The notes beneath the pieces are model-generated. The model was given only the letters and a program-made list of their open reading frames with translations, was not told where the DNA came from and did no database searches. A stretch of DNA of 42,454 bases from an uncultured Pseudomonadota bacterium (lineage in GTDB: Bacteria; Pseudomonadota; Alphaproteobacteria; Rs-D84), in NCBI GenBank assembly GCA_949292385.1, contig CASEZC010000034.1:1-42454 (forward strand). The letters run 5' to 3'. The position numbers were made by a program, and so were the translations under genes. The stretch's first letter is position 1. Every line of letters starts with the position of its first letter. Of this stretch, positions 1,176 to 23,112 are shown piece by piece.

Positions 1176-2005
1176 AAAAACTTATGGGTGTTGAATATGG
1201 TCGCGGTGCAACCGCACAAATCGTAGAAGGAGGACCTGCGCTTGCCCCAAGAGCTGTAAAAAACATATTCCCAGAAAATGATTGGTCTATTATAACAGCA
1301 GATCCGGTTTCTAAAGAAGAATGTCTTGCCGATAGATTCGGAGAAAATTACAAAATACAACAAAAAATTTATTCCAACACACCAAAAGCGCCTCATGTTT
1401 TAATTGGTGGGGACCATTCTGTAAATTTTGGACATTTTTCAGCACTGGCAGATAACGCGCTAGACAAGGATATATGTTTAGTATACATAGACGCACACCT
1501 TGATATACATACACCCGAATCATCCAAAGCAGAAGCATCTGGTGCACCACACGGTACAAACGTCCGTGCGTTATTAGGCGAAGGAGATAAAAGATGGCTG
1601 TCTTTACAGAATAAAACCCCTGCCCTAAAGCCTGAAAACGTTTTTTACTTGGCAACACGTTCATATGAAAATTCGGAAATAAATTTTGTACGCGATAACA
1701 ACATATTTTGTCGCGCGGCAAAAGATTTAAAAACTAAACCAGATTGGGAAAATGCAGTAAAAGAGATAAAAGAAAAGATTAATAATCGTCCATTTATTGT
1801 ATCTTTTGACTTTGACGCCTTGGACCCATATATTTTTAACGAAGTCTTGGTGCCAGAGCCGAACGGCATATCATTAGAGGCCGCAAAATATTTTTTAAAT
1901 GAATTTAAAGACGCTTTAAGTTTTGAATTCGTAGAATACGCTCCAAACGGCGACAAAAATTGTGAAGAAGTTGCAAAGCAGCTTATATCTATTTCCTTAG
2001 AATAG
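1172..2005 (+). CDS. Arginase/ureohydrolase family protein
   Basis: GGDHS, DAHLD, SGAPHG and DFDALDP metal-binding motifs. Confidence 0.9.
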   Translation: MKKLMGVEYGRGATAQIVEGGPALAPRAVKNIFPENDWSIITADPVSKEECLADRFGENYKIQQKIYSNTPKAPHVLIGGDHSVNFGHFSALADNALDKDICLVYIDAHLDIHTPESSKAEASGAPHGTNVRALLGEGDKRWLSLQNKTPALKPENVFYLATRSYENSEINFVRDNNIFCRAAKDLKTKPDWENAVKEIKEKINNRPFIVSFDFDALDPYIFNEVLVPEPNGISLEAAKYFLNEFKDALSFEFVEYAPNGDKNCEEVAKQLISISLE

Positions 2006-2006
2006 A

Positions 2007-2948
2007 TTATCTTTCATAGAAATATTTTGTGAAATAAGCATCCATTTTTGGCGAACAACCGTTAAACGCAAAGTAATAGAATGCCAAAGAGGATGCTTTT
2101 TCTAGAATTTTTTTATCTTGATAATTATAATCACTGAAAAATACTTTATGCAATTCTTCTATATTTTCTGATTCTGTAAGAGTTAGTATTTTTCTATATA
2201 ACTTTCTTACTCGATAAGATGCCGAACCATAAACGGTCCTGTAAGTATCACCAAAATCTATTCTTTTACCCTGACGAAAGTTTCTATCAGAACACTCGTT
2301 TTCATGCATATCAAAAATTTCGTTTTTGTTGCAATTATAAAGTCCATCTTTGTTGTCTCCTGCCCACTTTGAAAGAATATAAATAGGCCCAGAAAAAGAC
2401 GCCATATAAACTTTATTATTATTTTTAGGTTCTGCTTTATACGCGTTTATAGCAACCGGCACCTCAAAAAACGCACCATTTCGTCTAAAATATTTCGCGT
2501 CGGTATAAAAGATTTTTAAAGCGTAATTCGCGTTCAACTTTGGGAAAGACATTTTACATACAAAAGCAAAAGCACCACGCCATTCGCCTAATAACAAACC
2601 TTTTGAAAGTACCTGACATTCTGTATCAAACAAATCGCCAATAGAACTAACATCGAATTTGCAATCTTCAAAAGAATCCCGCATTTTACCGTATTTATTA
2701 ATTATAAAAAAATCCAAAGAATCCCTAAATTTTTTTGTAATCTTTGAAATATCTCGCTTATTTTTGCAGGCTCTTATCAATTCTGGCGGCAAACATCCAA
2801 TATATGGAGAAACATAACAATCTTCTAAAACCTTGGATATTGTCTTAGGTTCAGAAATCCAATGTTTACGAAACCAATGAGTAAGCGAAACATGCTTACA
2901 CAGGTTAGAATCACTATCATCACAAAAAAAACTATCTTTAACTTCCAT
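2007..2948 (-). CDS. Hypothetical protein with divergent protein-kinase-like fold
   Basis: RGAFAFVCK (Gly-loop-like), YALKIF (beta3 Lys), FFEV, YILSKW, ECSDRN, RIDFGD in kinase order. Start placed at ATG 2948 because a promoter covers the track's TTG start at 2987. Confidence 0.6.
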   Translation of the reverse strand: MEVKDSFFCDDSDSNLCKHVSLTHWFRKHWISEPKTISKVLEDCYVSPYIGCLPPELIRACKNKRDISKITKKFRDSLDFFIINKYGKMRDSFEDCKFDVSSIGDLFDTECQVLSKGLLLGEWRGAFAFVCKMSFPKLNANYALKIFYTDAKYFRRNGAFFEVPVAINAYKAEPKNNNKVYMASFSGPIYILSKWAGDNKDGLYNCNKNEIFDMHENECSDRNFRQGKRIDFGDTYRTVYGSASYRVRKLYRKILTLTESENIEELHKVFFSDYNYQDKKILEKASSLAFYYFAFNGCSPKMDAYFTKYFYER

Positions 2949-2958
2949 AACAGACACC

Positions 2959-2987
2959 ATAATATAGCCTATATGGTATTTTGTCAA
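2959..2987 (-). promoter_or_regulatory. sigma70-like promoter of the kinase-like gene
   Basis: Minus strand TTGACA-17 nt-TATTAT; the -35 overlaps the stop codon of the upstream lipoprotein gene. Confidence 0.6.
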
Positions 2988-3169
2988 TTATTTTCACATA
3001 ATATATTATTTCTATAAATATTTCTTGCCAAATCATCACTTATAACGTTCCAATCGTTTTCGTGACCATATATAATTGTACAAGGCCGGCAAACATTAAT
3101 CGACGATTGTGTATTTCTGGCGCAAGATGCTACGAATATCGTGCAAGCCAGTACTAAAAACTTTTTCAT
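2984..3169 (-). CDS. Small lipoprotein, Rz1/o-spanin-like
   Basis: 61 aa; MKK plus hydrophobic stretch plus lipobox VAS-C; further Cys; start lies 74 nt inside the upstream gene with internal SD (AGGAAAGAGGTAG-ATG). Confidence 0.6.
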   Translation of the reverse strand: MKKFLVLACTIFVASCARNTQSSINVCRPCTIIYGHENDWNVISDDLARNIYRNNILCENN

Positions 3170-3335
3170 CTACCTCTTTCCTTTTATTTTCATAAATAGT
3201 TTGATTATCCTTTATATTTTCTATTGTTTTTTCGGCAAATTCTTCTTTGCATTTTGCATTTCCACGGAATTCGCCAGCTAAAAAGCACAAAAATAAAGCC
3301 AGACAAATAAGTCCGACAAGATAAAATTTATACAT
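3096..3335 (-). CDS. Small membrane-anchored helical protein, Rz/i-spanin-like
   Basis: 79 aa; N-terminal TM then G..RG..C and a charged helical region; AAGG SD; overlaps the lipoprotein gene in another frame. Confidence 0.6.
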   Translation of the reverse strand: MYKFYLVGLICLALFLCFLAGEFRGNAKCKEEFAEKTIENIKDNQTIYENKRKEVDEKVFSTGLHDIRSILRQKYTIVD

Positions 3336-3356
3336 AATAAAAACCTTTAAAAAATT

Positions 3357-3384
3357 AAAAAGCCCTCTTTTTCGAGGGCTTTTT
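3357..3384. terminator. Intrinsic terminator downstream of rho
   Basis: AAAAAGCCCTC-TTTTTC-GAGGGCTTTTT inverted repeat right after the rho stop. Confidence 0.85.
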
Positions 3385-3385
3385 A

Positions 3386-4654
3386 TTACTGATTCATAGA
3401 AGTAAAAAAGTCAGCATTTGTCTTTGTTAAACGCAATTTATCTAACAAGAACTCCATAGCTTCCAAAGTTCCCATCGGATTTATAATTCTGCGTAGAACA
3501 TACATCTTTGCCAACGTATCTTTTCCAACTAATAAGTCTTCTTTACGTGTGCCAGACTTAGTTATATCAATTGCAGGATAAACACGTTTATCTGACAGCT
3601 TTCTGTCTAAAATAATTTCACTGTTTCCTGTACCTTTAAATTCTTCAAATATAACTTCGTCCATCTTTGACCCTGTATCTACCAATGCAGTTGCAATAAT
3701 GGTCAAAGAACCGCCACCTTCGATATTACGAGCAGCACCAAAGAAACGTTTTGGTCTTTGTAACGCATATGCGTCAACTCCACCTGTTAAAACTTTACCA
3801 CTACTTGGAACAACTGTATTATACGCACGCCCCAAACGAGTAATAGAATCTAATAAAATCACAACATCCTGCCCTGCTTCAACTAATCGTTTTGCCTTTT
3901 CTATTACCATTTCAGCAACTTGTATATGGCGCGCCGCAGGTTCATCAAAAGTAGAAGAAATTACTTCGCCCTTTACACTGCGCTGCATATCAGTAACTTC
4001 TTCTGGACGTTCGTCTATCAATAAAACGATTAATTTTACATCAGGATAATTTGTTGCGATAGAATGGGCTATATTTTGCAACATAACCGTTTTACCTGTA
4101 CGTGGAGGCGCTACTATCAAAGAACGCTGTCCTTTACCCGTAGGTGCAATCAAATCAATAACACGAGCAGACAAACTACGTCCCTTGTCTTTATCGCCTT
4201 CTACTTCCATTTTCAACATTTCATCTGGATAAAGAGGTGTCATATCATCAAAAGAAACGCGATGACGCAACTTTTCTGGATCACCACCATTAACGCGTTC
4301 TATTGTTTCCAAAGCGAAATAGCGCTCAGATTCATTTTGTGGTGCCTGAATTTGCCCCTCTATATAATCCCCTGTTTTCAAACCATATTTTTTTATCAAA
4401 CTAGGTGAAACATATAAATCATCAGGACCAGCCAAATAATTGCTTTCTGGTGCGCGCAAAAATCCGAAACCATCTTGCATACGTTCCAGAACGCCGTCAC
4501 CAATTAAAGTAACTTTTTTATCTGCTGCAAACACACGCATAACAGCAAATCTTAATTGCTGAACGTTTAACTGAGAAGGATTTTCTATCCCCATATCTTC
4601 AGCCATTTTTAATAACTGTTGTGGCGTTTTTGCCTTTAACTCATTAATATGCAT
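3386..4654 (-). CDS. rho: Transcription termination factor Rho
   Basis: [46 protein letters not shown] motifs; 422 aa. Confidence 0.99.
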
Positions 4655-5338: not shown

Positions 5339-5372
5339 AAAAATAAAAACCTCTTTCGAGGTTTTTATTTTT
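5339..5372. terminator. Bidirectional intrinsic terminator between ssb and the autotransporter
   Basis: AAAATAAAAACCTC-TTTC-GAGGTTTTTATTTT between convergent genes. Confidence 0.85.
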
Positions 5373-8300
5373 AGAATCTGTACGAACCAGAAACTTTTAT
5401 ATTATGTAACTGAATTACAGAATTATACTGATATCTATAATCCAATCCTACTTGTAACCCACTTGCAGACAGCATTTCTACACCACCACCAATATTTGCC
5501 CACAAAGGATTCAAATCTACGTCATAACTTGTATAAGAATTTGCCTGTGCAAACTTATATTGTACTTCATCTGGAGCTCCTAGAACATCATATTCAACAC
5601 CGATAGAAGCATATGGACGTATTTGGAACCAAGCAGAAGGATAAATACGCTTTTGTGCGATTAAGGAATACCCCGGCGTAAACATTAAATATCCGTCTGA
5701 CTCAAGATTCATATAATCTTGGTTATTTGCAGTTTCCTTTACAGAAAATCCAGTATTATATCCTGCACGAACGTATGCATTACCAACGATATACTGATTA
5801 AGCCAATCATGCATTAATCCCCATTCACTGGTCAAACTAAACGCGGTTCCAAAGCCTTCAATTGGCGCAACATAGTTTTGCGTACGAGAAACATCAAACA
5901 AATGTATATCCAAGAAAGCATTTCCATAGACACGCATTTTTTCGCTCAAGTTTTTCATTAAATAACCACCCAAGCCGATATTAGTGTCTGCAACGTTTAC
6001 ATCTACGCGACCAGAAATAACATTGTCAGCATAACTTAAATCTATATCATCAAAATTATCCGATGACATATTAGATATACGTCCTGTTAAACCTAATATC
6101 ATCGTTTCAGATGCCTGCCAATCGAAACCGCCTGAAACATTGAACCTATTTCCATAAACACGCTTGCCATCAGAAACATTTTGACTAAACATTCCAAAAT
6201 CAACATCCAGCCAAGCTTTTTTCAAATTACGGTTACGATTCCATATAAATTCATCAAACATACGGTCTTCAAAATAACGATAATTTGTATGGTCATTTAA
6301 TGCAATAGCTCCTGCAATTTGCTCTAATTCACGTGGTTGGAACAAACGAGTAAACTGTGTCAATTCGTAGCCGTTTTTATCCATAGCTTCACTATAATCT
6401 TCCATTCTGTTATACAGTTCCCACGCCATCTGTTCTAAATTAGACCCCGTAAAGATTTCTGGCAACAGTTCTATCATTGTACGATTATAGAAGCCTGCAC
6501 TTAACAATCTATCTGCAATCAAATTATCTATAGCATTCGCAGACGCATATTCACCCTTTGTGAAACCTTCTGTTGCTGCAACAATAGGTTGCAATTTGAA
6601 CACCTGTATAGGACCGCCAAACTGAGGGTCAAATACGACATATAAACTATCCATGATTCCATCACCGTCAGAGTCACGAACGGTTACATATGCCGGCAAA
6701 TCTTCGTCAGTTGCCCCATTATTAGGATTCAAAGTGTCTAAATAATTTATACAAATACTGCCATCAGCATTACAGAAACTAACATTTAAATTACGCAATT
6801 TCGCCAAATCATTGCTTTCTATAATGGAATTGCCCTCGCCTTCTGTATGCAATAACCATATAGCAGAGCCTTGATCTACAATATCATTTAACACCAAACC
6901 AATTTGTCCATTTTGCATTGGCGCATTAACGGCAGGATTTCCAAATTCAGATGCAGAATTAAATCCAGAAATAAAATCACCATTTACCGTAATTAAAGCT
7001 TCTGCTGTCCCATCACCTAAATTATTAGTAATTTTACCAAAATCTTCGCCTTCTGTCGTATTCACAGTTGCCCAATAATTCTTTTCAGAAGAACCAAAAA
7101 TATTAGCTAAAATACTACTGTTTTTATTGAAGGTATAATTACCATTAATGGTCATTTGATTCAAACCATTGAAAGCAACCCCACCAGAAACATCGCCATC
7201 AACAGTAACATTCATGCCTGTTTCATAGTTTGCTGCATTAAAGCTTATATTATCTGCAAAAATGCCGCCACCTATATCAAAACTATTTGCAGATATAGAA
7301 AAGTCTTTTGAGGTTATATTTATACCGCCTTCAGGTAAACTTCCTTTATAATTTTGATACAAAGCGGAATTTGTAACAAAATCAGCAGCAGATTTTAGTC
7401 CCTGCCCCGCTAAAGCAATAGTACCATTACTGCCGGCATCAAAATCATTTACATTTATAAAGCCGTTACCAGAATCTAATGATAAGCTGCCGGTATTATT
7501 AATGGTTCCAAAAGAAATACCATTTTCAGCCGTAAAACTTGCTGTACCAGCGTTCGTTAAGTCTGCTGCAGAAATGGCATTACCAGCAACCATGGCAATA
7601 CTTGCACCTTCAGAAACGTCCACATTTCCGCTAAAGCTTACATTATTAGAAACATCATACGTTGCGTTTCCTGAAATTGCCGAGAACGCCCCTGTAACAT
7701 CTAAATTATTAGCACTAAAATTAATATCAGATGCAATCAAATTAAATGTACCAGAAGTTCCACCTTGTACAAAATTTCCTGTATTTGTGAGACTTCCTAA
7801 AGTTATATCTGAAGAATTTAGAGAGATATTTCCGCCACTATTATTAACACCTGAAAAAGCAATTGTCTTTGCATTCGCTGTCAATGTTCCACTGTTAGTA
7901 ACGGTGTTATCAAATTCCATACTACCATTAACCGCAGAAACTGCCAAAGTACCGGAATTATTAACAAGCCCGAACAATTCGGCGTTTTCAGCAGAATTTA
8001 CATTAAGAGTATTACCACTGGCAATATTCATTCCCCCCGCCAAGTAAATTCCGTCAACTTCTGTAGTAAGATTTAACTCATTTGTTTCAGAAACTACTAA
8101 ACCTATTGTTGGATTAGAAGCATCAAACCAAACACCGTCTTCGATATTTATGCTGCCACTTGTTGCTGTAATCTGGCTGCCAGTTGCAATTATTTTACCA
8201 CCTGACAATTCTTGCAATGCACCAACATCCGTATCATCTGTAACAAATTTTACGCTCCCGCCATTGCTTGTAGAAACATTACCGGCAACATTTAACTTTT

Positions 8301-10254
8301 GACTAGAACTTCCACCAAATATTATATTTCCGGCATTTTCAACAGAAACACTACCAGAAACATCTATAATATTTGCAGAAAACGTTGCTGTTCTTGACGT
8401 GCTATCAACGGCAACGATATCACCACCAATATTTATACTTCCATTTGTTGCAGTTAATATAAAACCAGGCGTTCCAGCTGCTGCAACATTTACAGAACCA
8501 GCTGATACCGCCTGCTCTGCACTAAGAGAAACGTTTCCATCTATATTAACTGAACCATTTGCAACAGTTACAGATTTCGTAGCGGAATCAATATTCATAT
8601 TACCAGTATCCGTAACATCAAGATTTCCATTAACAATAGTTACACCACCACCAAGTGATTTTAAATTAAGTGTTCCACCAGTAACATCAACCGCACCGAT
8701 AGTTAAATCCCCTAAATTAACATCCGAACCTTCTATACTTGTAACACCAGCAGAGTTCGTTAAAGTACCGTCTATTGCAACACTACGCGCACTTATTAAA
8801 GAATTACCCGTTTCATTTACGAAATTACCAGTAATATTAACTGCACCGTCTTGACCTGTGGTTGCCAAAACATTTAAAGCACTTCCAGAATTTGTAACAT
8901 CGGTCAAACTAACATTTGTACCACTTAACGTCATCTGCCCAAGGTTGGAAACATCTCCAGAAACAGACAAAACATTAGAAGAATTTAAATTTGTTACAGA
9001 ATTTATATTTCCGCTGCTAACATTTCCAGAAACAACTATACCTGTACCAGATGCATCATTTGCTGTAATACTTAAATTGCCACCGTTATTTATAACCGAC
9101 GTTGCAGAAACAGATTGCGCCAACAATGTCATACCTGCATCGACATTTCCAGCAGAACCATTATTTATAGTTCCTGCATTCAAAGCCCCAGCAGTAACAT
9201 TTAAATAAAAGTTATCTATATTGCTATTTATCCAATCTGTATTACCTGTAACCAACGTACCAGTTGTAACATTGAAAACATTATTTTCATTCATACCGCT
9301 CAGGTCGAAACCACTGGCTAAATTAGTCTCACCTGAAACAGTTAAATACAAATCACCAGAATTAACGAAAGAAGAATTTAACGAATCGCCACCAGCAACA
9401 GTCAAACTATCCGCATTAATCTTCAAAGAACCAGAATTCGAATCGTTTTTCACGGTTCCAGCAACACTTATATCACCAGCACTTACAATCATTGAGGAAC
9501 CGGAATTTTCTAAATTTCCAGACGTTATATTCAAATTTCCAGAAGCAGCTATATTAAACGTACCGCCATCTTGTCCATTTTGAATTGTTCCATCAGAAGT
9601 AATATTACCAGTAGTAATATCAATATTTCCACTTCCAGAATTTATAAATCCGCCCAGCGCCAAATCCGATGTAACATTCAAAGAATTCAAAGCTCCAGAT
9701 ACATTAATCGCACCAGCATTCATAGATTGTGCAGTAACAGACAAACCGGTTGTTGCAACAGTTGCACCAGCTATCGTCAAAGTATCTGCATTTTGTATTT
9801 TTAATTCTCCGTTTGCATTTACGGAACCAAAACTCATATCAACAGCACTTTCTGGTGCTAAAAAAGAAAGATTATAACCACTATTTACAACAACACTATC
9901 TGCAACAGTTATTGCCCCTTCGGAAGAAATTGTAAAAGTATTGTCTATTCCGCCTGCACCACCCAAAGCATACAAATCACCATTCGAACCACCCTGGAAA
10001 TTAGGGTCACCAATATATAAAGCGCCTGCGACATTCAACCCTTGACTTGCACCATCGCTACTACTTATTACAATACCATTACCAGACTGTATGGCTAAAT
10101 TTCCATCAGTTGTACTTAAACCGGTTAATCCACCGTCACTACCAACAGCGTTTCCAGAACCAGGATTGTAATTAGGAACATAACCATCAGGATAAACAGC
10201 CGCCTCTGCATAAAAAGGCAACAAACAATATGCAAGCGTAAATATCTTTTTCAT
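5371..10254 (-). CDS. Large autotransporter-like outer-membrane adhesin
   Basis: Signal peptide from MKKIFTLAY (ATG 10254); about 1100 aa of Gly/Asn/Ser/Thr-rich beta-helix-like passenger; C-terminal amphipathic beta-strands ending VSGSYRF. Confidence 0.85.
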   Translation of the reverse strand: MKKIFTLAYCLLPFYAEAAVYPDGYVPNYNPGSGNAVGSDGGLTGLSTTDGNLAIQSGNGIVISSSDGASQGLNVAGALYIGDPNFQGGSNGDLYALGGAGGIDNTFTISSEGAITVADSVVVNSGYNLSFLAPESAVDMSFGSVNANGELKIQNADTLTIAGATVATTGLSVTAQSMNAGAINVSGALNSLNVTSDLALGGFINSGSGNIDITTGNITSDGTIQNGQDGGTFNIAASGNLNITSGNLENSGSSMIVSAGDISVAGTVKNDSNSGSLKINADSLTVAGGDSLNSSFVNSGDLYLTVSGETNLASGFDLSGMNENNVFNVTTGTLVTGNTDWINSNIDNFYLNVTAGALNAGTINNGSAGNVDAGMTLLAQSVSATSVINNGGNLSITANDASGTGIVVSGNVSSGNINSVTNLNSSNVLSVSGDVSNLGQMTLSGTNVSLTDVTNSGSALNVLATTGQDGAVNITGNFVNETGNSLISARSVAIDGTLTNSAGVTSIEGSDVNLGDLTIGAVDVTGGTLNLKSLGGGVTIVNGNLDVTDTGNMNIDSATKSVTVANGSVNIDGNVSLSAEQAVSAGSVNVAAAGTPGFILTATNGSINIGGDIVAVDSTSRTATFSANIIDVSGSVSVENAGNIIFGGSSSQKLNVAGNVSTSNGGSVKFVTDDTDVGALQELSGGKIIATGSQITATSGSINIEDGVWFDASNPTIGLVVSETNELNLTTEVDGIYLAGGMNIASGNTLNVNSAENAELFGLVNNSGTLAVSAVNGSMEFDNTVTNSGTLTANAKTIAFSGVNNSGGNISLNSSDITLGSLTNTGNFVQGGTSGTFNLIASDINFSANNLDVTGAFSAISGNATYDVSNNVSFSGNVDVSEGASIAMVAGNAISAADLTNAGTASFTAENGISFGTINNTGSLSLDSGNGFINVNDFDAGSNGTIALAGQGLKSAADFVTNSALYQNYKGSLPEGGINITSKDFSISANSFDIGGGIFADNISFNAANYETGMNVTVDGDVSGGVAFNGLNQMTINGNYTFNKNSSILANIFGSSEKNYWATVNTTEGEDFGKITNNLGDGTAEALITVNGDFISGFNSASEFGNPAVNAPMQNGQIGLVLNDIVDQGSAIWLLHTEGEGNSIIESNDLAKLRNLNVSFCNADGSICINYLDTLNPNNGATDEDLPAYVTVRDSDGDGIMDSLYVVFDPQFGGPIQVFKLQPIVAATEGFTKGEYASANAIDNLIADRLLSAGFYNRTMIELLPEIFTGSNLEQMAWELYNRMEDYSEAMDKNGYELTQFTRLFQPRELEQIAGAIALNDHTNYRYFEDRMFDEFIWNRNRNLKKAWLDVDFGMFSQNVSDGKRVYGNRFNVSGGFDWQASETMILGLTGRISNMSSDNFDDIDLSYADNVISGRVDVNVADTNIGLGGYLMKNLSEKMRVYGNAFLDIHLFDVSRTQNYVAPIEGFGTAFSLTSEWGLMHDWLNQYIVGNAYVRAGYNTGFSVKETANNQDYMNLESDGYLMFTPGYSLIAQKRIYPSAWFQIRPYASIGVEYDVLGAPDEVQYKFAQANSYTSYDVDLNPLWANIGGGVEMLSASGLQVGLDYRYQYNSVIQLHNIKVSGSYRF

Positions 10255-10335
10255 AGCAATTTTTTTCTTTCTTCCAATCGTTTTTATTATTATATTATGA
10301 CACAATTCGTCAAATAAGACAAGACGTAACTGTAA

Positions 10336-21400: not shown

Positions 21401-22438
21401 TTATTTAGTTTTTTGTTCTGATGAAAAATATTTCTTCAAAAGATTAAATCTATAAGAAATTGCGTTTTTTATTATATCGTTTCTAGCATAATTCACGGAA
21501 ACATCTTTCCCTTTTGGTATTCCGCTAAGAGTTCTGAGATTATTATACGAACAATCATAAAACTTTGCTTTTTTAGGTCCGCCTTCTAATGTTTCAAGAT
21601 AATTTCCTTTACAAATAAAAGAATCTACCGCATCCGGTGCCCCACAAAGCGTTACTAAATTATTCCAAGAACAATTATAAAATTTTGCCGTTTTTGGACC
21701 ATTTTCTAAAGACTTTAAATAATTATAACTACAATTAATAGAAACTATACCCTCTGGACAACCTTTTAACTCTTTTAACTTATTGTTAGAGCAATCAAAC
21801 GTGCCCACCCTTTTTATACCATCTTTAAGAGTAGTTATTTTATTTTTATGACAATAAAAAACATTTAACTCTTTTGGCGCACCTTTCAAAGTCTTTAATA
21901 AATTCCAAGAGCAATCATAGACAGGCGCAAACTTCGGTCCCCCATCTAAAGACAACAGTTTATTACTGCTGCAACAAAAGTATTCTTGCACAGAATCTGG
22001 CGCATACCTTAAACTACTTAACTTATTATTAGAACAATCATAGATTTTAGCTTCTTTTGGACCACCATGTAGAGAGGACAATAAATTATTATTACAATAA
22101 AACTCTTCAACAATTTCTGGTGCGCCATCCAAAGAACTCAATTGACAATGTGCACAATTAAAAACATTTACAATCTTAGGACCATGCAATAAATTGCTTA
22201 TATCATTAAACATACAATTAAAATTTCTGGCAACCATTGGCGCGCCACGTAAAGTCCTAAGATTATTAGACGAACAATCAAAACTACCTAAAACAACTAT
22301 TGTTGATAAATCAGGTAATTCTGTTAGCCCCATTTCAGAAATATCAATGTTACCTTTTACCACCAACCACTTTGGTAAATCGAAAACATCATATTTTGTA
22401 CCATCCTGTACAAAAAATCTTTTACTGTTATTTTCCAT
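21401..22438 (-). CDS. Leucine-rich repeat protein, 13 repeats of about 20 aa
   Basis: Repeats (F/Y)xCxxNxLxxLxG(A/G)Pxxxxx; no signal peptide; GGAG SD. Confidence 0.85.
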   Translation of the reverse strand: MENNSKRFFVQDGTKYDVFDLPKWLVVKGNIDISEMGLTELPDLSTIVVLGSFDCSSNNLRTLRGAPMVARNFNCMFNDISNLLHGPKIVNVFNCAHCQLSSLDGAPEIVEEFYCNNNLLSSLHGGPKEAKIYDCSNNKLSSLRYAPDSVQEYFCCSSNKLLSLDGGPKFAPVYDCSWNLLKTLKGAPKELNVFYCHKNKITTLKDGIKRVGTFDCSNNKLKELKGCPEGIVSINCSYNYLKSLENGPKTAKFYNCSWNNLVTLCGAPDAVDSFICKGNYLETLEGGPKKAKFYDCSYNNLRTLSGIPKGKDVSVNYARNDIIKNAISYRFNLLKKYFSSEQKTK

Positions 22439-22454
22439 TTCTATCGGAGACTTA

Positions 22455-23015
22455 TTATTTTTCTTTTTGTATCGTTTTTCTGCTTAAAAATTGCTTTAAC
22501 TGTTCAAATCTATAAGCCAAAGCATTCTTCACAAAATCATTACCCGAGCTATAAAAAGCTATATTTTGTGTTTTTGGAGCCCCATATAAACTGATAAGAT
22601 TATTTTTTGAACAGTCATAAATTTTTGCTTCTTTTGGACCACCTTCAAGATCTTTCAACTGATTGTAAGAGCAAACGAACTCTACCACAGCTTCTGGCGC
22701 TCCTTTCAAAGTCTTTAATGAATTACAAAAACAATTGTAAATTCTTGCTTTCTTAGGTCCATATTCCAAAGAAGTCAACTTATTAAAATTACATGCAAAT
22801 ACATCAACTTCTTTTGGCGCACCTTTTAAACTTGTTAAAAAGTTTCTAGAACAATCAAAAATACCTTTAACAACAACCGTAGACAAATCAGGCAACTCAG
22901 TTAAATCCATATCAGAAATATCAATATTGCCTTTTACTACAAAGTTTTTTGGTAAATTGAAAACATCATATTTTTTGCCGTCTTGTATAAAATATCTTTT
23001 TTGCTCGTTTCTCAT
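22455..23015 (-). CDS. Leucine-rich repeat protein, 5 repeats of 20 aa; paralog of the downstream gene
   Basis: Shared cap QDGxKYDVFxLPKxxVVKGNIDISxMxLTELPDLST and tail NDxxKNAxxYRFxxLK; start ATG 23015 with AAGGA SD. Confidence 0.85.
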   Translation of the reverse strand: MRNEQKRYFIQDGKKYDVFNLPKNFVVKGNIDISDMDLTELPDLSTVVVKGIFDCSRNFLTSLKGAPKEVDVFACNFNKLTSLEYGPKKARIYNCFCNSLKTLKGAPEAVVEFVCSYNQLKDLEGGPKEAKIYDCSKNNLISLYGAPKTQNIAFYSSGNDFVKNALAYRFEQLKQFLSRKTIQKEK

Positions 23016-23112
23016 ATAAATCCTTTTAAACACAAATTAAGATTATGCAATCAGACACAAGCAATGTCAACAAAGAATATTTTCGTCAACAAAACATAAT
23101 TATTAATAAAAC

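Follow-up and report, generated by a model that had tools for sequence, protein, structure and literature searches.

A predicted Chi-type spanin gene pair behind rho in reduced-genome gut Alphaproteobacteria

The subject of this work is a pair of small overlapping genes located behind rho on contig CASEZC010000034.1 (assembly GCA_949292385.1), a stretch of 42,454 nucleotides (nt), hereafter the window, from an uncultured alphaproteobacterium of the lineage Rs-D84. Based on profile homology and gene architecture, the two open reading frames (ORFs) are assigned as the cognate halves of an overlapped two-component spanin of the type found in phage Chi. We propose that the pair was captured from a phage, has been kept by vertical inheritance and acts in lysis controlled by the host, and we give this statement as a whole a probability of about 0.55. 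The host genome comprises 776,624 bases in 46 contigs and is 91% complete; its family consists of gut Alphaproteobacteria with reduced genomes, the named relatives of which are Candidatus Enterousia.

Organization of the gene pair and properties of its products

Both genes are on the minus strand. The first (3096..3335), which matches phrog_1026, encodes an i-spanin-like putative inner-membrane protein of 79 amino acids (aa), and the second (2984..3169), which matches phrog_1275, encodes an o-spanin-like putative outer-membrane lipoprotein of 61 aa. In a dual-coding overlap of 74 nt (3096..3169, minus strand), the final 24 codons of the membrane protein gene also contain, in the +1 frame, the initial 24 codons of the lipoprotein gene. 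A Shine-Dalgarno-like run read from the sequence, GGAAAGAGG (3173..3181, minus strand), lies within the membrane protein gene, 4–12 nt ahead of the lipoprotein ATG. An earlier, sequence-only reading of the window had described two intact ORFs of these sizes overlapping in different frames, a VAS-C lipobox with a further Cys, and a ribosome-binding site inside the first gene, and each of these features was recovered here.

To describe the family, one genome per species was scanned; of the 234 lipoprotein relatives obtained in this way, the 80 best loci were analysed. Together with the genome under study they make 81 loci; selection and residue counts were obtained on the 74 pairs that could be parsed automatically. 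The best 80 of the 234 relatives come from metagenome-assembled genomes of Alphaproteobacteria from animal guts, several of them named Candidatus Enterousia.

According to hydropathy, the most hydrophobic 19-residue window of the 79-aa protein is at its N-terminus. The AlphaFold2 model consists of one helix (residues 3–75, mean predicted local distance difference test score (pLDDT) of 74.7), and the approximately 53 periplasmic residues are predicted to form a single continuous helix. Among the 74 membrane proteins, the hydrophobic window starts at residues 1–8 and is followed by 50–58 residues. The proteins of the family are 74–84 aa long, Cys29 is near-invariant, and the C-terminus is conserved as D-I-R-x-x-L-x-x-x-Y-T-I. 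An N-terminal transmembrane segment with a mostly helical periplasmic domain, the arrangement of an i-spanin, is predicted by the model.

The 61-aa protein has a signal peptide, a VASC lipobox (Cys16), Ala at position +2, a short linker and a compact C-terminal domain with the pattern C..C.IYG...DW..ISDDLARNIY..N..C; its other cysteines are at positions 27, 30 and 58. The model contains a helix at residues 45–60, with a pLDDT of 86–91 across residues 31–60. Lipoproteins of the family are 59–77 aa long, with a mature part of 44–62 residues, and the alignment has 14 invariant columns, Cys16 among them. A lipobox was found in 74/74 lipoproteins (VASC in 46). The +2 residue was Ala in 54 and Thr in 17 of the 74 and never Asp, so that an outer-membrane lipoprotein lacking a +2 residue for inner-membrane retention is predicted, as for an o-spanin. 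LspA and LolA are encoded in the host genome, which makes maturation of the lipoprotein and its delivery to the outer membrane feasible.

All 74 pairs have periplasmic cysteines that could form disulfide links: one or two in the membrane protein and two to four, beyond the lipobox Cys, in the lipoprotein. At least one periplasmic Cys was counted in 507 of 528 known spanin systems (Kongari et al. 2018, PMC6139136). The conserved C-terminal parts of both proteins are compatible with binding of the subunits there, without demonstrating it. Complex prediction with residues 24–79 of the membrane protein and 17–61 of the lipoprotein gave a score of 0.26 (mark 0.32), which bears on neither side.

Relationship to phage spanin families

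The membrane protein matched phrog_1026 (E 6.8e-6; 16 of 23 members match, best E 3.3e-8) and the lipoprotein matched phrog_1275 (E 5.4e-7; 23 of 23 members match, best E 1.1e-10). Both families are annotated as 'Rz-like spanin', and weaker matches of the membrane protein also include other families with this annotation. The i-spanin of phage Chi belongs to phrog_1026 (E 1.9e-22) and its o-spanin to phrog_1275 (E 4e-24), so that the two families are cognate and belong to a single type of phage. In Chi (chi_004/chi_005) and in Season12, where gp039 and gp040 are annotated as 'i-spanin' and 'o-spanin', the pair comprises 84 + 67 codons and follows the endolysin gene (immediately in Chi), with the overlap again 74 nt long and in the +1 frame. 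The two-component spanin architecture proposed from the sequence is thus backed by homology to both families and by the identical overlap in Chi.

A profile search with the lipoprotein among 1.84 billion representatives gave 24 matches, the distant ones being lipoproteins of 60–81 aa that share the pattern C...D.D.ISD.LA..I..HN...C. One distant match, P0143, corresponds to 197 phage records with Salmonella, Proteus, Aeromonas, Burkholderia, Rhizobium and other hosts; among the matches listed, the annotated ones are mostly Rz1 or o-spanin. Comparisons of single sequences gave less. With hhalign, the i-part was aligned to Chi in the membrane helix only (E 1e-3) and the o-part with E 5e-5; tblastn of the two window proteins against phage records returned insignificant matches only (E 0.3–0.5), and nothing was found with P0140. 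Scans of viral contigs gave one 13-residue match for A2 (lipoprotein) and none for P0130. Neither protein of the pair had a match in Pfam (above cut-off), NCBIfam, PADLOC or the PDB sequences. The weak comparisons with Chi and the null tblastn results mean that the link to spanins rests on profiles.

Five of the tested features of two-component spanins were found here, namely the overlapped gene arrangement, homology to a recognised spanin family, the predicted i-spanin topology, the predicted o-spanin lipoprotein and the periplasmic cysteines, and one was absent: the neighbours of the pair are rho and an arginase-family gene, not a phage lysis cassette. Such a context was found only for a prophage-borne paralogue.

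A prophage-borne counterpart in a related genome

The genome G069 (contig C5) carries a second, more divergent copy of the lipoprotein (profile E 5.9e-17) within a prophage; this was the case in 1 of 151 genomes searched. The element of about 28 kilobases includes genes for an integrase (E 7.6e-51), RecT, RecE, RusA, the large terminase (E 4.2e-39) and tail and tail-fibre proteins. Its lysis genes are arranged in the order holin (PF05105, E 5.2e-14, above cut-off), 79-aa i-spanin homologue, overlapping o-spanin homologue, 55-aa ORF and VanY-like peptidase (E 0.002, below cut-off). The i-spanin homologue aligned with the chromosomal family over its full length (hhalign probability 96.9%, E 1.6e-10), and the o-spanin homologue matched phrog_1275 (E 7.9e-6). 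Depending on the candidate start, the two genes overlap by 47–65 nt, the start of the o-spanin gene being uncertain. Phages of these bacteria thus employ this spanin family in its ordinary role, and the simplest explanation of the chromosomal pair is capture of part of such a lysis cassette.

The prophage region (C5:18000-34500 and C5:34000-53999) also contains a NinB-like gene, and a HicA/HicB pair and lysS adjoin it. The majority of its structural genes had no PHROG match, on the basis of which the prophage may belong to a group of Candidatus Enterousia phages that has yet to be described.

Two irregular forms of the lipoprotein were observed. In several divergent relatives, namely P0123, P0125, P0130 and P0131 (114–119 aa) and the prophage copy (L131, 8159–8518, minus strand), the o-spanin frame is open far upstream and would encode an additional hydrophobic segment at the N-terminus, followed by a basic linker. 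The extension is probably a gene-calling artefact arising from the alternative frame of the i-spanin gene, but it recurs in four clusters. In P0132 (81 aa), the N-terminal half of the membrane protein continues in frame into the C-terminal half of its lipoprotein partner (…DWNVISDDLARNIYRHN…). It looks like an internal deletion that fused both genes; either an assembly artefact or a genuine variant confined to the inner membrane could account for it.

Conservation of both frames and selection

Both frames were open, with an overlap of exactly 74 nt in the +1 frame, in 81/81 species-level loci (in one, a contig end truncates the first ORF). The ratio of nonsynonymous to synonymous substitution (dN/dS) was estimated by the method of Nei and Gojobori (NG86) on the 74 pairs. 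In the non-overlapping parts it was 0.18–0.23 for the lipoprotein and 0.69 for the membrane protein. The proportion of synonymous differences (pS) was 0.34–0.35 within the overlap against 0.70–0.77 outside it, for both frames, a reduction by half that is expected if both frames code. The lipoprotein is under purifying selection, and the pair is far beyond a chance overlap of ORFs. The sequence-only reading had called for dN/dS across related genomes and had named loss of the lipoprotein ORF at homologous loci as a result that would speak against a spanin module; no such loss occurred in the 81 loci, and the low ratio for the lipoprotein agrees with its retention.

Distribution and synteny

In a single-protein search of 24 genomes of the same genus, the membrane protein was found in 22 and the lipoprotein in 22 with strong and one with weak similarity. 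The lipoprotein profile was then applied to 150 genomes of the order, 121 of which belong to the family (107 to the genus and 14 to other genera) and 29 to other families. It was present in 112 of the 121 family genomes (about 93%), that is, in 103 of the 107 from the genus and in 9 of the 14 from nine other genera. The other five families of the order gave a single match (1/29), which was weak and covered the signal peptide only (E 0.009). The four genomes of the genus without the lipoprotein (93–97% complete) also had no significant match to the membrane protein. Genomes with the pair are 0.7–1.1 megabases (Mb) in size.

A broken copy was observed in G115, a member of another genus (C13:13000-17500, L132, approximately 1995–2190, minus strand). 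A TAG codon separates two matching pieces of the lipoprotein frame there, and the membrane protein frame upstream is uninterrupted; the copy is a pseudogene, or else the TAG stems from a sequencing error.

In the window, rho (3386..4654, minus strand; Pfam Rho_RNA_bind, Rho_N and ATP-synt_ab) is the upstream neighbour, lies outside the module and ends 50 nt from the pair. In the related loci, rho was found upstream on the same strand in 63/80 and directly adjacent in 46/80, and an arginase-family gene converges downstream of the pair in 50/80. In some lineages the upstream gene is instead one for an exported protein of about 900 aa or a methyltransferase-like gene. In G050, which belongs to another genus of the family, the pair also lies behind rho with the overlap of 74 nt. 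Presence throughout the family together with a shared position indicates that the module predates the radiation of the family and was inherited in place. The pair was behind rho in the family ancestor and was then inherited vertically under selection, with a phage as its likely earlier source. The synteny with rho looked for after the sequence-only reading was therefore observed, and the outcome which would have pointed to a prophage remnant, namely presence in one strain only, was not: the prevalence, the syntenic site, the open frames in 81/81 loci and the purifying selection on the lipoprotein do not describe a cryptic remnant.

Directly after rho, and some 20 nt ahead of the first start codon of the pair, there is an intrinsic-terminator-like hairpin of 12 pairs with a T-run (3356..3385, minus strand). 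A hairpin of this kind with a T-run was found in 58/74 loci, at a median of 18.5 nt before the first start codon and regardless of the upstream gene. Over such a short distance, a separate promoter would hardly fit; based on these sequence features, the pair is probably transcribed at a low level by read-through from the upstream gene.

On the other side of the pair, an ORF of 326 aa (2007–2987, minus strand) separates it from the arginase-family gene. Searches of Pfam, PHROGs, NCBIfam and PADLOC gave no match for this ORF. A related ORF was present in 15/80 loci, with 35–54% identity, so this is a variable insertion at the spot. As a candidate third component of the system the ORF was rejected, having no family match and occurring in these few loci.

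Other lysis genes in the host genome

The window was searched with Pfam (31 ORFs) and PHROGs (18 ORFs), covering the pair and otherwise ORFs of at least 100 aa, with PHROGs applied to part of the long ones. Within this scope, no holin, endolysin, integrase or virion family was found, in agreement with the earlier statement that phage genes are missing from the window, and the spanin pair gave the only matches to lysis families.

Two matches to GH24, the phage lysozyme family, were found in the host genome, on contigs other than that of the pair. One is a soluble, endolysin-like protein of 167 aa without a signal peptide (phrog_7, E 1.8e-34). The second GH24 domain is part of a 636-aa membrane protein with hydrophobic segments and a tetratricopeptide repeat tail. 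A strict coupling of the pair with the soluble GH24 gene was considered and rejected: the gene was found in 14/24 genomes of the genus, and two of the four genomes without the pair keep it.

The soluble GH24 gene (G000:C38:1759-2259; L041 1369–1872) is preceded by an ORF of 272 aa (L041 454–1272), the product of which matches no family and includes an HEKKH (HExxH-like) motif. The GH24 lysozyme of three related genomes is encoded in one open frame of 408–430 aa, apparently joined to this upstream protein.

Proposed function

Based on the above results and on what is described for phage spanins, we suggest the following course of events. Both proteins would be present in small amounts, their transcription probably running on from the gene ahead of them. 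Their conserved C-terminal parts would then join to form a bridge from the inner to the outer membrane that threads the cell wall; the halves of known spanins meet by their C-terminal parts and span the periplasm through the wall in this way (PMC6139136, PMC10847048). The bridge would be inert as long as the wall is intact. Once the wall is opened, either by the cell's own unlinked phage-type lysozymes or by an attack from outside, the membranes would be pulled together and fused, and the cell would burst. This step is modelled on phage spanins, the bridge of which is described as inert with an intact wall and as fusing the inner and outer membranes after wall degradation (PMC6139136, PMC10847048). 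The outcome would be the last step of a lysis controlled by the host, comparable to the lytic cassette of a type 10 secretion system (T10SS) with its parts dispersed. The particular use in host-controlled lysis together with unlinked muramidases has, in our judgement, slightly less than an even chance.

Several observations weigh against this proposal. The part of the membrane protein outside the overlap is weakly constrained (dN/dS about 0.69), and the periplasmic parts of the two proteins are short (50–58 and 44–62 residues); by our estimate, some 53 helical residues together with 45 of the lipoprotein would reach about 14 nm at most. No cargo, regulator or trigger is known for the pair. The soluble GH24 gene, as noted above, is found in only 14 of the 24 genomes of the genus and is kept in two of the four lacking the pair. 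No holin was found in the host genome with PF05105 or with the G069 holin as queries; holins are diverse and the genome is 91% complete, and so this result is weak evidence. Finally, the action of the Chi-type family as spanins rests on gene position and on the annotation of curators.

The sequence-only reading had suggested a domesticated module and had named unlinked holin, endolysin or gene transfer agent (GTA) genes as worth a search. Domestication fits the presence throughout the family and the maintained frames, and two phage-type GH24 genes turned up elsewhere in the genome. The specific uses offered there, a dispersed GTA or tailocin lysis cassette among them, did not gain from the search, as neither a holin (two queries) nor an HK97-type capsid (PF05065, the virion family searched for in the host genome) was found.

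Alternative explanations

A different function for the same proteins was considered, in which the family adopted only the membrane-fusion part of a phage lysis kit and the spanin bridge is a standing part of the envelope that acts without any holin. It could monitor the integrity of the wall and fuse the membranes at openings, or it could be a structural tie. We regard this as rather unlikely; if true, it would be the first spanin with a cellular, holin-independent role, in organisms whose genomes are among the smallest in the gut.

The main rival to host-controlled lysis is a permanent tie between the inner and outer membranes, of the same origin and with no role in lysis, which would set the width of the periplasm or stabilise the envelope of a tiny cell. 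It would account for the lack of a linked holin or endolysin and of co-variation with the soluble GH24 gene. The location right behind a housekeeping gene and a terminator, in 58/74 loci, suggests low constitutive rather than induced expression. Retention over a long time in genomes of 0.7–1.1 Mb also favours a tie. A spanin bridge is harmless in a cell with an intact wall, as described for lambda Rz/Rz1 (PMC6139136). On the other hand, the four fairly complete genomes without the pair and the one broken copy show that it is dispensable, and a spacer with fixed length and contacts might be steadier than this fast-evolving helical shaft. To our knowledge, there is no precedent for a spanin serving as a tether, which also counts against it. 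We consider a tether of this kind a minority possibility.

It is improbable that the pair serves in relations with phages, either as a defence in which infected cells burst sooner, similar to abortive infection, or as a lysis function provided in trans for phages that lack spanins. Phages of this lineage with the same spanin family do exist, as the G069 prophage demonstrates, and both genes were lost jointly in some genomes, as is often seen for accessory defence genes. However, PADLOC gave no match, the fixed position and a prevalence of about 93% are unlike those of mobile defence islands, and a prophage-borne second copy was met in only one of 151 genomes. Furthermore, the timing of lysis in known systems is set by the holin and not by the spanin, and a host spanin would therefore aid the phage instead of hindering it.

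Were the pair a functionless, neutrally evolving remnant of an old prophage, this would explain the phage origin of the genes and the few genomes that lost or broke them. We consider it very improbable in view of frames that are open in 81/81 loci despite near-saturated synonymous sites (pS 0.70–0.77), of the dN/dS of about 0.2 for the lipoprotein, and of genomes that are strongly reduced, with 81–94% coding and no build-up of pseudogenes (PMC12306168).

The least probable explanation is an unrelated pair of small envelope proteins resembling spanins through signal peptide and transmembrane composition, as might be argued from their shortness, the weak Chi comparisons and the tblastn results: the matches span mature, non-signal parts including the motif D.D.ISD.LA..I..HN..C, each protein matches the cognate family of one phage pair with Chi's overlap length and frame, and in a prophage from this lineage, genes for a holin and a peptidase flank both homologues.

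Other genes of the window

Two adjacent genes on the minus strand (21401–22438 and 22455–23033) have no Pfam match and both match phrog_21719, a family of unknown function (E 7.7e-25 and 4.1e-6, respectively). Judging by these matches, the two seem to be paralogues, and phages have members of their family as well. Nearer to rho, a gene at 5371–10305 (minus strand) encodes a protein of 1644 aa with a signal-like N-terminus, long Gly/Ser/Asn-rich repeats and a C-terminus (…SGSYRF) typical of outer-membrane barrels. It had no Pfam match at E 1e-5 and is possibly an autotransporter-like adhesin.

Comparison with known systems

Known spanins carry out the final step of phage lysis or are members of complete T10SS lysis kits borrowed by bacteria. 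Here, about 93% of the genomes sampled from a family that has shed most of its genes keep the pair alone, and this retention argues that it is useful by itself or with unlinked partners. Among the papers listed by searches on orphan or host-encoded spanins, the titles and the beginnings of the abstracts mention no lone chromosomal spanin pair. The system offers a natural test of how a spanin complex acts in a cell that is not under phage lysis, and a way into the biology of the envelope, and into a possible programmed lysis, of the uncultured group Candidatus Enterousia. In addition, more than 200 natural pairs of a very small spanin (about 75 + 45 mature residues) can be used for co-variation and structure analyses.

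With lambda Rz/Rz1 and T4 PseT.3/PseT.2, the pair shares the two-part logic, the membrane topologies and the periplasmic cysteines. The C-terminal helix in the lipoprotein model resembles the one described for T4 PseT.2 (PMC6139136). No sequence similarity to either phage system was detected. Lambda Rz is about twice as long as the membrane protein described here, and Rz1 is embedded and proline-rich, whereas the present lipoprotein contains 4% proline.

Clusters of holin, endolysin and spanin genes outside phages act as lytic cassettes of T10SS (PMC10847048). As in Serratia marcescens (ChiWXYZ) and Yersinia entomophaga (YenLC), where the release of contents is controlled by the host (PMC10847048), phage-derived spanins have been kept here outside phages. 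The T10SS loci group the holin, endolysin, spanins and a dedicated regulator and have a known cargo, while in the reduced-genome gut alphaproteobacterium the spanin pair stands alone at its locus, PF05105 finds no holin in the genome and the GH24 genes are on other contigs.

The cassette of the G069 prophage comes from the same bacterial lineage and has overlapping homologues of both proteins. It differs in that a PF05105 holin and a VanY-like peptidase flank them, and in that the prophage copy is more divergent than any chromosomal copy.

The closest resemblance is to Chi and Season12. The proteins match the same two PHROG families and are similar in size (84 + 67 aa in Chi against 74–84 + 59–77 aa here), with the 74-nt +1 overlap, an N-terminal anchor followed by a helix, and a Cys-bearing lipoprotein with a motif of the D.D.ISD.LA..I..HN..C type. 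The Chi genome produces virions, and its pair is preceded by a holin-like gene and the endolysin gene, whereas here, with low identity to Chi, it is located alone on the bacterial chromosome behind rho in nearly every species of the family.

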